DNA of 64,000 nucleotides from a virus (lineage: Duplodnaviria; Heunggongvirae; Uroviricota; Caudoviricetes). The translations under genes and the position numbers were made by a program. The stretch is taken from IMG/VR virus record IMGVR_UViG_3300035703_000003. One strand, written 5' to 3'. Under the pieces are notes generated by a model, which was given only the letters and a program-made list of their open reading frames with translations, was not told the origin of the DNA and searched no databases. This document shows, piece after piece, positions 3,823 through 10,419 of the stretch (positions within the stretch are counted from its first letter, which is position 1; each line of letters starts with the position of its first letter).

Positions 3823-3896
3823 TGGCGAGGGTGCAGAGAGTCGAACTCTGGCTTGCGGTTTTGGAGACCGCCGTGCTACCATAACACTTCACCGAC
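3823..3896 (-). tRNA. tRNA-Trp-like (anticodon CCA); acceptor stem has two mismatches
   Basis: T-arm CAGAG-TTCGACT-CTCTG, anticodon stem GCGGT/ACCGC with loop CTCCAAA, D-arm GTGT-TATGGTA-GCAC. Acceptor is GTCGGTG vs CACCCTC (T.T and C.C at pairs 2 and 3). Confidence 0.5.
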
Positions 3897-5220: not shown

Positions 5221-5659
5221 GTATTCTATTTATAAACTACGTTTAGAAGATACACATAAACTTAGCATAACGCTCTCCGGACTAAGCCTCTGTTAGTATA
5301 TATGTGTATCGTCAAAACGTAATGTTTTGCCTAGCTTGAGATTACAGCGTAGGACGGGAGCCTTTGAGCATTACCGTTGGCCTTGCGAGCCACGTTCTCT
5401 CGTTATCCACAGAAGCCTGTTACGGTCATCCTGTATCTCCCAATGGTGCCTTTTTTGGAGAGTGGCGTTTCTCTCGTCGCACGTTGCTACTCGTCCTTCT
5501 ATCCTTCGTCTGCCTTGCGAGCAGTTCAGAGTCGCTAAACCCTTACGCTATCTTTCCGAACAACTACATCAGCCTTGCGAGCATCCGTAGACCACATTCT
5601 CTTTCGAGTGTGGCATTAACCACCTTTCACAACGTACCGGGACAGTCTTTCGCTTTTGT

Positions 5660-5730
5660 TTCAATAGTAGGAGTTGAACCTACAATCCATCGTTCTGAAT
5701 ACGATTGCATTACCGTTATGCAATATTGCG
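5660..5730 (-). ncRNA. tRNA-like element with anticodon loop ATTCAGA (anticodon UCA, would read UGA); acceptor weak, no CCA
   Basis: T-arm GTAGG-TTCAACT-CCTAC, 5-nt variable, anticodon stem ATCGT/ACGAT perfect, D-arm GCAT-AACGGTA-ATGC. Only 5 of 7 acceptor pairs form. Confidence 0.35.
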
Positions 5731-6181
5731 AACCTACTTCGATGTGCTGTCCCAGTTGCACCATATCTTGTTAGATACAGTATACAACACACCGACTGTC
5801 TTTTGCCTTGCGGGCTACTCAACGTCACTTCAAGTATCCGGGGCCTAACCCTTCCACTCTTGTAATGCTACTACGCCTTTCCTTGCGGGGTCAGACAGTG
5901 TAGCTACCTGTTAGTATTCTCCATTCGTTGCTTTGGCTGTATGCTGTTCGGGCGCCAACCCTCTTACTACTCACCGACCGGCTCTGTAGCTATCCTTTCG
6001 GACAACACACGCAACTTACTGGATACCGCCTTTCTACGGACGGGACTTGCTTTCGCATTGCGAGTCAAGTCTAACCCAGGCTTGTATAGCTGGACCATTG
6101 CTGGCGCAAGTTTATAGGAAACCTTGCTTTGGGTGCATTGCTGCACTTACCCTTAAGTTGGACGCTATACCGCCCATATAA

Positions 6182-6292
6182 ACTGTGTTTAAAACTATAC
6201 ATTGTGGAATCGAACCACCGAGCCGACCACAAGGTCGACCTGTTCCATAACATCGGCGTGGCCTACGCCTTATGTATAGTTTAAAACACAGT
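6182..6292 (-). ncRNA. Structured element: 22-bp perfect inverted repeat enclosing about 65 nt with a T-arm-like hairpin and two further hairpins
   Basis: ACTGTGTTTAAAACTATACAT (6182-6203) is the exact reverse complement of 6270-6291. The interior contains GTGG-AATCGAA-CCAC, CGACC-ACAA-GGTCG and GGCGT-GGCCT-ACGCC. Confidence 0.5.
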
Positions 6293-6346
6293 CATTACTA
6301 AATTTTCAAAGAGCGTATAAGCAACTTGTTTGCTGCTTATGTTCTT

Positions 6347-6375
6347 AATATAGTATGTGTTGCTGTCATTGTCAA
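6347..6375 (-). promoter_or_regulatory. Sigma70-type promoter TTGACA-N17-TATATT, minus strand, reading into the ncRNA locus
   Basis: Reverse complement reads TTGACAatgacagcaacacatacTATATT. It belongs to the repeated promoter-leader element 6301-6380. Confidence 0.6.
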
Positions 6376-6575
6376 CACCTTTTTTTATCTTTTTTTATTT
6401 AATTACTTGAGCCTGTTGCCACAACATCAACAGCATTATCTACAAATTTTCGGCCGTGTAGTTATGGACTTGCGTCCTTGGGGTAAGTCATTACAGTTAC
6501 TTGGAAGGATGCATTTCCTTTGTTACTACAGCCGCTAAACCGTAGCACCTTTCACTTACTGACACTCAAGTATTT

Positions 6576-9069: not shown

Positions 9070-9669
9070 TTATTCTACAATACCTGCACGAGCAAGGAAA
9101 TGCTCTGCTTCATCGTCAAGCACAATTGTAGTGCTTACGTTAAGCTCTAGCAACGAGTCTTGCAGTGCAGTCTTTACTCGCTTTAGACGAGCGAGTTCGG
9201 CTTTGAATTCTTCGATCTTCTCTTTATCGAAGATGTTAGTAGTGACAGTGTCGTCACCGAAACGACCGTAAACGTCTGCTTTGTCACGACCTTTAATCTT
9301 GCCTAGCTTACCGACAAGAACATCGTTAGCTACTGCAGGCTCTAGCTTGCTTAGACGCCCGTATAGCTGCATGTCTTTGTCTAGCATTGCTACATCAGCT
9401 AGCAAGCTATCAATACCGGAAGCGGCGTTAGCATGGGCTACTGCCTTGCGAATTTCGTAAAGAACGCCTAGCAGCTTGCCACGAGTAGCAAGATGTGTCT
9501 CAAAGCGGTTAGTAGCTTCGGACACCTTTTCGCTAGGCTTTTCGAATTCGTTAACCGAAACTTCTGTGCCTAGATCTAGTGTGCCTAGCATTTCATTAAT
9601 TGCGTGTTGTAGTGCGTTTGCTTTACGAAGTGAGATTTCCATTACTTTGTCCTTTGTGTTCGTTTTCAA
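9070..9669 (-). CDS. Hypothetical protein
   Basis: 199-aa ORF with overlapping genes upstream and downstream, consistent with operonic packing. Confidence 0.55.
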   Translation of the reverse strand: MKTNTKDKVMEISLRKANALQHAINEMLGTLDLGTEVSVNEFEKPSEKVSEATNRFETHLATRGKLLGVLYEIRKAVAHANAASGIDSLLADVAMLDKDMQLYGRLSKLEPAVANDVLVGKLGKIKGRDKADVYGRFGDDTVTTNIFDKEKIEEFKAELARLKRVKTALQDSLLELNVSTTIVLDDEAEHFLARAGIVE

Positions 9670-10246
9670 TTTTCTTTGCGATTACTTTGTGTAGACCTGG
9701 ATTAATAACTAGCATTTGTGTTACAACGTTTTCACGAATATAGTTTCTAATGTATGAAGTGTCAAGATTTGATTTGTCTTCAACCCAACTTACATTTTTT
9801 CGTTTACACCAATCAACAAACTCGTGCTTTCTGTTTAACCTAAACGGCCTAATAACGTTTTCATTTTGGTAAGGAATAATTTTACCCTCACCGTGCATAC
9901 TTGACCAAATCCACGTTTCTACACAATCATCCAAATGATGACAAGTGATAACAGGCTTTTGCCAGGCATTTAAAACTTTATAACGTTCGTTCCTCCAGTG
10001 TTCTTCTTGGCTTACGCCCTTAGGAACAACAGTGTTGATATACGAAGTGTATAGTTTTAGTTTAGTATCGTCTGCATACTGCAAAAGAAACTTGTGTGCT
10101 TGTTCACTTGTTTCTGTGCCGTGATGCACAAATTGTAGAGTAATACGATGATTTCTTTTTAGAAAATCAACAATAGCCATACTATCAACGCCGCCACTGC
10201 AAGCAATTACAACGTCTCTGGGTAGTTTGCTTTGGACTTTAATCAT
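9623..10246 (-). CDS. tilS: TilS-like tRNA(Ile)-lysidine synthetase catalytic domain (PP-loop ATPase)
   Basis: PP-loop SGGVDS near the N-terminus. Blocks FVHHGT, CHHLDDCVETW and WVEDKSNLDTSYIRNYIR resemble the TilS N-domain motifs (HVHHGL, QHLDDQCETF, WIEDESNQDDSYDRNFLR) as I recall them. It lies immediately downstream of two CAU tRNAs. Confidence 0.7.
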   Translation of the reverse strand: MIKVQSKLPRDVVIACSGGVDSMAIVDFLKRNHRITLQFVHHGTETSEQAHKFLLQYADDTKLKLYTSYINTVVPKGVSQEEHWRNERYKVLNAWQKPVITCHHLDDCVETWIWSSMHGEGKIIPYQNENVIRPFRLNRKHEFVDWCKRKNVSWVEDKSNLDTSYIRNYIRENVVTQMLVINPGLHKVIAKKIENEHKGQSNGNLTS

Positions 10247-10262
10247 CGCATTACTCTAGTTT

Positions 10263-10338
10263 GGTGGAAGGACTGGGACTCGAACCCAGATAGTTACGTT
10301 TATGAGACGTATGCATTCACCAATTATACTATCCTTCC
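10263..10338 (-). tRNA. tRNA with anticodon CAT (copy A; Met, fMet or Ile2)
   Basis: Acceptor GGAAGGA/TCCTTCC perfect, anticodon stem TACGT/ACGTA with loop CTCATAA, T-arm CTGGG-TTCGAGT-CCCAG, CCA encoded. Confidence 0.7.
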
Positions 10339-10342
10339 GATT

Positions 10343-10419
10343 TGGTAGGGGATACCGGACTTGAACCGATAACCTGCCGATTATGAGTCGGACGCTCTAA
10401 CCAATTGAGCTAATCCCCC
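10343..10419 (-). tRNA. tRNA with anticodon CAT (copy B; Met, fMet or Ile2)
   Basis: Acceptor GGGGGAT/ATCCCCT, D-arm GCTCAATTGGTTAGAGC, anticodon loop CTCATAA, T-arm ATCGG-TTCAAGT-CCGGT, CCA encoded. Confidence 0.7.

Follow-up and report, generated by a model that had tools for sequence, protein, structure and literature searches.

A tRNA-like domain with a UCA anticodon embedded in a phage GOLLD RNA

The finding of a tRNA-like element with a UCA anticodon, which would decode UGA, in the tRNA island of an uncultured phage has led us to wonder whether this element serves translation as an opal-suppressor, selenocysteine or tryptophan tRNA, or whether its cloverleaf has been kept for another purpose. 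The DNA analysed here, hereafter the window, is the whole stretch of 64,000 nucleotides taken from the virus record IMGVR_UViG_3300035703_000003. The element lies there in a tRNA island, where ARAGORN made 30 calls, all in the same orientation, and the window elsewhere carries myovirus genes, among them those of the large terminase, the tail sheath and a gp15-like protein; no cultured phage was matched when 22 kb of the window were searched with megablast. From the evidence discussed below, we consider it very probable that the element is a non-decoding structural domain of tRNA shape and tRNA origin, located in J13/15, the internal linker of GOLLD, a large RNA of phages, and that its UCA triplet is unselected.

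A cloverleaf in the linker of GOLLD

ARAGORN called a tRNA of 73 nt with anticodon tca at 5658..5730 on the minus strand of the window, the label 'SeC' being given because of that anticodon alone, and the Rfam tRNA model matched 5659..5730 (-) with 48.2 bits (E 3e-7 for the 64-kb window; gathering score of the family, 29 bits). This match falls entirely inside a larger one. The GOLLD model RF02032 aligns to 5795..5333 (-) over its full length (model positions 1-416) with 193.7 bits, the gathering score being 150 bits, and in the covariance-model alignment the tRNA occupies model positions about 63-132, which belong to the variable linker, a part left unstructured by the model and bounded by its first hairpin on one side and its long-range pseudoknot on the other. 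Conservation with related loci, as determined by blastn of 5226..6575, extends over ~6205..5238 and amounts to 89.5% for locus L021 and 87.4% for L027; the upstream part of GOLLD, about 410 nt, is conserved in closer relatives only. The features of this locus are listed below in window coordinates.

6347..6375 (-): promoter-like site TTGACA-17-TATATT, 11/12 by consensus match only, upstream of the GOLLD transcript
5796..6205 (-): GOLLD 5' domain, approximate, delimited by sequence conservation among related loci
5333..5795 (-): GOLLD conserved 3' domain (RF02032, 193.7 bits), its variable linker filled by the tRNA-like domain
5728..5732 (-): tentative 5' strand of a clamp helix, UUCGC, overlapping acceptor nucleotides 1-3 and pairing with GCGAA
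5659..5730 (-): tRNA-like domain, a cloverleaf of 72 nt up to discriminator A73 (ARAGORN end 5658), by the Rfam tRNA model and covariation over 25 homologues
5707..5721 (-): D arm GCAU-AACGGUA-AUGC with A14 and G18G19, stem 4/4 paired in 25/25 sequences
5689..5705 (-): anticodon stem-loop AUCGU/ACGAU, 5/5 pairs kept through compensatory changes
5694..5700 (-): loop at the anticodon position, AUUCAGA, with UCA at 5698..5696 and G at position 37, read from the sequence
5667..5683 (-): T arm GUAGG-UUCAACU-CCUAC, stem 5/5 paired in 25/25 sequences
5649..5653 (-): tentative 3' strand of the clamp helix, GCGAA, pairing with UUCGC

When the element is parsed directly, the acceptor strands CGCAAUA/UAUUGAA form five of seven pairs, the mismatches being C1.A72 and G2.A71; U8 and U9 stand between the acceptor and the D arm, the variable region is GGAUU (5 nt), and discriminator A73 is followed by CAAAAG, with no CCA. 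The features that hold a tRNA core together (U8, A14, G18G19 and the T-loop UUCAACU) are all present, and A15 pairs with U48. The original prediction of a UCA tRNA-like element at 5660-5730 is therefore borne out by both programs and assigned to the minus strand, on which the strings then quoted, ATCGT/ACGAT and ATTCAGA, are correct readings. Its clean D, anticodon and T arms were recovered by direct parse, by the covariance model and by covariation among the 25 homologues, and the parse likewise returned the five acceptor pairs out of seven and the lack of an encoded CCA that had been described. Automated folding, proposed at that time as a check, gave a divided answer: ARAGORN and the Rfam model yield a cloverleaf, but the minimum free energy (MFE) fold of the isolated element does not (-16 kcal/mol, z = -1.9), a result that says little in the case of an AU-rich tRNA. 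Since MFE folding missed it, the cloverleaf assignment rests on the covariance-model score together with covariation.

A recent duplication of a tRNA of the island was considered as the source of the element and rejected, the best global identity being 67% among the 29 others, and tRNA-Arg(UCU) not being in the top matches.

It is known from cryo-EM of other members that GOLLD assembles into a nanocage of 14 copies, in which the variable linker points to the inside and is disordered (Kretsch et al. 2025, PMC12286853). A mycobacterial GOLLD holds a pseudo-tRNA, for which no separate product was seen on a Northern blot (Behra et al. 2019, PMC6582537), and a 2026 review describes a tRNA-Phe embedded in J13/15 along with the idea of an 'inhibited storage' (PMC12990946); the same review cites Morgado et al. 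2020 for linker-embedded GOLLD tRNAs. The element of the window is like these GOLLD linker tRNAs and pseudo-tRNAs in its position, RNA family and phage tRNA-island setting, and in being a cloverleaf of doubtful function. The locus is a new GOLLD with an embedded tRNA-like domain, from an uncultured myovirus, and belongs to a kind of feature that is already known.

Conserved core and variable loop among related loci

Four cultured phages with a homologous GOLLD were found by blastn (DSS3_MAL1, MD18, DSS3P8 and Phosso), and a motif of the GOLLD core, located directly downstream of the linker, led to further loci, 17 from IMG/VR and 29 from metagenomes; the GTDB genomes scanned for this clade's core motif gave 0 matches. 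ARAGORN called a homologue of the tRNA-like element at the corresponding position of GOLLD in 44 of the 50 related loci, that is 45 of 51 with the window included. The loci without a call are accounted for by contig ends (four loci are cut there, three of them without a call), by Phosso and by two loci, L004 and L015, from which an arm of the linker element has been lost. The linker element of Phosso, a Sinorhizobium phage, scores 54 bits with the Rfam tRNA model, and the GOLLD of DSS3P8 has no intact linker element. Twenty-five distinct intact copies make up the set used for the comparison of structure.

Over these homologues, pairing amounts to 100% of cells in the D and T stems and to 99% in the anticodon stem, and double compensatory changes are numerous; one pair of the anticodon stem is seen as CG, UA, AU and GC. 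The whole named structure is paired in 97.5% of cells versus 36-50% (about 40%) when the partners are slid, and 14 pairs show changes on both sides, a result that none of 500 shuffles matched (0/500). U8 and A14 are invariant, the GG of the D-loop is retained, and the tertiary 15-48 pair covaries, being A-U in 11 copies, G-C in 8, U-A in 5 and A.A in one. The T-loop is of the UUCRA type in 24 of 25 copies, L033 having UUCAC. This pattern shows that the L-shaped tRNA core of the linker element is under clear purifying selection; as read from these alignments, the tRNA-like domain is an integral part of the GOLLD transcript unit. GOLLD does not strictly require the domain, however, since an arm of it has been lost in L004 and L015.

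Such losses, together with the defective acceptor end, the missing CCA and a drifting anticodon loop, are also what one would put forward for a functionless tRNA pseudogene in decay, trapped when GOLLD inserted into the tRNA array or grew within it. We hold this to be highly improbable, given that three stems have kept a pairing of 99-100% through compensatory changes, that U8 and A14 do not vary and the 15-48 pair covaries, all this in GOLLD bodies at about 68-75% identity, and that the window and locus L007 are 16% different over GOLLD but have 0 differences, outside the loop, over the ~100 nt compared in and around the element. Since the L-shaped core is under purifying selection, we do not regard the element as a decaying pseudogene, and of the 'degenerate pseudo-tRNA inside a structured RNA' that had been proposed as an alternative, the structured RNA stands, the element lying in the GOLLD linker, but the word degenerate does not suit its selected core.

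The anticodon loop contrasts with the structural domain that carries it. It occurs in 17 distinct forms in 25 unique homologues, five of these forms having 8 nt, and the apparent anticodons include UCU, UGA, UAG, AUG, GAU, UGG, UUU and UGC; UCA is found in the window only, among 51 loci. The nearest relatives have UCU, UGA or 8-nt loops. Locus L007, which equals the window over about 100 nt save for this loop, has CUUAUGAA versus AUUCAGA; L005 has CUUGAUA, L021 has AUUGAUAA, and the AUUCUAA of L027 is two substitutions away from the loop of the window. Anticodons that would be called 'Ser' and 'Leu' occur on class-I bodies with variable regions of 4-5 nt. Many loops contain UGA, UAA or UAG, triplets that are frequent by chance in AU-rich loops of 7-8 nt, and the loop of the window contains none of them.

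One form recurs: several of the deep branches, namely the L008 group, Phosso and L039, have the canonical Arg-UCU loop CUUCUAA, and UCU is therefore the likely ancestral state of the loop. The element probably descends from a tRNA of Arg-UCU type, and in this UCU-type ancestry the element of this clade is unlike the published embedded GOLLD tRNA, which is a tRNA-Phe.

The variability of the loop is compatible with a simple lack of constraint. One may also imagine that loop changes are due to diversifying selection, the domains being tethered decoys that track host defences directed at tRNA (anticodon nucleases) or other factors that bind anticodon loops; if this were true, GOLLD would represent an RNA-only anti-defence sponge, with a dozen or so tRNA decoys in each cage, a scenario that we find quite unlikely. 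A kissing loop with a fixed position of GOLLD was sought by mapping loop-complementary 5-mers on a full-length alignment of 30 sequences and was rejected, the best column bin being common to only 3 of 14 loop types and coinciding with the element's own T-loop.

It is worth mentioning how these elements appear in public records. In the GenBank entries of the roseophages DSS3_MAL1 and MD18 (MN602268 and MT270409), the GOLLD-embedded element is annotated as tRNA-Arg and GOLLD itself is unannotated. The embedded elements of these two phages (L001, 3255-3330; L002, 3241-3316) have G33, an acceptor stem of 5/7 pairs and no CCA. Caution is called for with such annotations, 'tRNA-SeC' here and 'tRNA-Arg' in the related records, as they can lead to false inferences about recoding or tRNA repertoire.

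The acceptor end and the question of decoding

Acceptor pairs 4-7 are formed in 21-25 of the 25 copies and pairs 1-3 in 7-14 only, and a full stem of 7/7 pairs is found in 0 of 25 homologues. No CCA is encoded in 22 of 24 embedded copies; CCA ends 242 of the 247 distinct free-standing tRNAs of the same loci. In the window, CCA is encoded in all the other Rfam-aligned tRNAs checked (28/28), the embedded element being the sole exception, and 7/7 acceptor pairs are formed in 26 of these 28. The two that fall short are tRNA-Trp, with a real tandem mismatch, and one tRNA-Met, whose coordinates as used lay 1 nt off those of ARAGORN. Taken with the loops, these comparisons indicate that selection is on the tRNA shape, and not on the anticodon or the aminoacyl end.

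The embedded elements of L028 and L033 have kept G1-C72, A73 and an encoded CCA, with the loop UUUAGGC, and some lineages may on that account yield a processable tRNA.

A short helix possibly forms at the base of the element. The strands UUCGC and GCGAA can pair in 20-21 of the 25 homologues, and in Phosso and L039, which have UUGCG/CGCAA instead, pairing is kept and slipped by one nucleotide; the covariation of the helix is essentially a single event. We tentatively suggest that this helix clamps the base of the tRNA-like domain, which, if real, would account for the mismatched terminal acceptor pairs.

Could the element nevertheless decode UGA? A functional opal-suppressor or Trp(UCA) tRNA would have to be excised by RNase P and RNase Z, completed with CCA by a nucleotidyltransferase and charged, and it would bring about a partial or regulated read-through of UGA. 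Suppressor tRNAs are known in some phages together with stop-codon recoding, and the element resembles those of stop-recoded phages in its tRNA-island context and in an anticodon complementary to a stop codon. Its cloverleaf scores above the Rfam threshold, U33, a purine at position 37 and an intact tertiary core are present, and roseophage relatives possess a nucleotidyltransferase gene adjoining the tRNA cluster; if the element were released, its 3' end might in principle be completed by a CCA-adding enzyme. Unlike phage suppressor tRNAs, however, the element has an unconserved anticodon, UCA being unique to the window and the loop different in every close relative, a broken acceptor stem (C1.A72 and G2.A71) and no CCA, and no recoded genes were found among the 47 ORFs of the window. 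Tryptophanyl-tRNA synthetase recognises an identity set made of the G73 discriminator and the anticodon, and the element has A73 versus G73 on the window's own tRNA-Trp(CCA). A G37 following A36 is furthermore atypical of tRNAs reading UNN codons. The architecture of a Sec tRNA is absent from the element, which has no long variable arm, no 8+5 acceptor/T arrangement, and a D stem of 4 bp, not 6.

The coding side of the window gives the same impression. As had been observed before, its genes end normally with all three stops: the 47 ORFs taken as genes terminate with TAA in 38 cases, TGA in 8 and TAG in 1. Beyond TGA, the next in-frame stop comes within 0-19 codons in seven of the eight genes, and an extension of 94 codons was seen once, for an ORF that is itself doubtful. 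The late genes of the window contain no in-frame TGA under code 11, the terminase, sheath and gp15-like genes and the ORFs of 2672, 1938 and 971 aa being uninterrupted, and reading TGA as sense in the window merges no genes beyond what is obtained with TAG as sense. In the one organism tested, moreover, the GOLLD pseudo-tRNA was undetected as a separate RNA (PMC6582537). With a loop that is unconserved, an acceptor end that is defective and lacks CCA, A73, no Sec architecture and TGA as an ordinary stop, the assignment to an opal-suppressor, Sec or Trp(UGA) tRNA is not supported, and we regard a functional suppressor as extremely improbable.

The rarity of TAG as a stop, 1 of 47 genes, is probably compositional in a DNA of 40% G+C.

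A role without decoding might also be that of a processing signal, comparable to mascRNA in MALAT1: the tRNA-like fold would be recognised by RNase P and/or RNase Z, the GOLLD precursor would be divided at this site into its 5' and 3' domains, and any small RNA set free would be a by-product. The elbow and the coaxial stack of the T and inner acceptor stems, which both enzymes recognise, are conserved; GOLLD lies in a co-oriented tRNA array that needs these enzymes, and its 5' and 3' halves form separate three-dimensional domains (PMC12286853). On the other hand, cleavage would have to take place at the outer acceptor pairs, and these are systematically mismatched or sequestered; GOLLDs that have no tRNA in their linker assemble at full length (PMC12286853; PMC12990946), and no product was detected in Mycobacterium (PMC6582537), so that we look upon a processing signal as unlikely.

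We come back to a non-decoding structural domain. According to this proposal, a tRNA ancestor would have kept the D, anticodon and T helices, the U8-A14 and 15-48 interactions and the elbow formed by G18G19 and the T-loop, and it would have lost what translation demands, namely the terminal acceptor pairs (the 5' end possibly pairing with the downstream GCGAA), the CCA and a fixed anticodon loop. UCA would be no more than the state reached by drift in the lineage of the window. If the linker faces the interior of the nanocage here as in the published cryo-EM of other GOLLDs, about a dozen tRNA mimics would be tethered in each assembly by their acceptor ends, with their anticodon loops pointing inward. 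The most likely use of these mimics would be as a handle or a bait for a partner that recognises the shape of tRNA. For GOLLD in this clade, the constraint drawn from the comparison is that elbow, core and helices are selected while the anticodon and the aminoacyl end are not; this suggests that the role of the linker depends on tRNA mimicry rather than on delivery of a translating tRNA. We consider this contrast between a conserved L-shaped core and a free anticodon loop as mildly new, for it was not found in the GOLLD literature with which we compared our data (PMC12286853, PMC6582537 and PMC12990946).

Other tRNA-shaped modules reside in larger RNAs and do no ordinary decoding, such as mascRNA in MALAT1, the tRNA-like structures (TLS) at the 3' end of plant viruses and the tRNA-like domain of tmRNA, and the GOLLD element is like them in this respect. 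Plant-virus TLS and tmRNA keep a functional acceptor end with CCA, whereas in the GOLLD element it is this end that is degraded; mascRNA is cleaved out of MALAT1, a release of which the GOLLD element shows no sign. The element had no Rfam match to the mascRNA, TLS or tmRNA families, a weak mascRNA match in the window lying on a tRNA-Asp.

Neighbouring structured RNAs and tRNA genes

Several features in the surroundings of GOLLD deserve a mention. Between the promoter-like site and the body of GOLLD, a near-perfect stem of 21 bp (ACUGUGUUUUAAACUAUACAU / AUGUAUAGUUUUAAACACAGU) at 6187-6293 (-) encloses four hairpins that meet in a multi-way junction, and one of them resembles a T arm (GUGG-UUCGAUU-CCAC). 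The fold has an MFE of -50.6 kcal/mol (z = -7.1), and the module had no match in Rfam or by ARAGORN. As homologous copies occur on either side of GOLLD depending on the locus, upstream in L021 and downstream in L011, L013 and L029, the module looks like an independent and possibly uncharacterised structured RNA.

Another long hairpin (GAUACACAUA ... UAUGUGUAUC), at 5240-5300 (-), adjoins the GOLLD match on its 3' side, ahead of tRNA-Ala, and may act as a processing or terminator-like element; the 111-nt stretch 5225-5335 folds with an MFE of -29.2 kcal/mol (z = -3.3), and the hairpin has no U-tract. In DSS3_MAL1 and MD18, GOLLD is closely followed by a permuted tmRNA of the alpha type.

Within the tRNA island, tRNA-Trp(CCA) at 3823-3896 (-) encodes CCA and G73 and shows tandem acceptor mismatches, U2.U71 and C3.C70. 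The same odd acceptor, GUCGGUG/CACCCUC, is found in the closest relative, L021, where ARAGORN makes no call for it.

At 9623-10246 (-) and 10262-10419 (-), finally, an ORF whose product has a PP-loop domain of the ATP_bind_3 family (E 1.9e-29) lies directly beside two tRNAs with a CAU anticodon. ATP_bind_3 is a Pfam family that, we assume, takes in TilS, and this adjacency suggests a phage-encoded tRNA-Ile2 lysidine system, in which one of the 'Met' calls would really be a tRNA-Ile(CAU).
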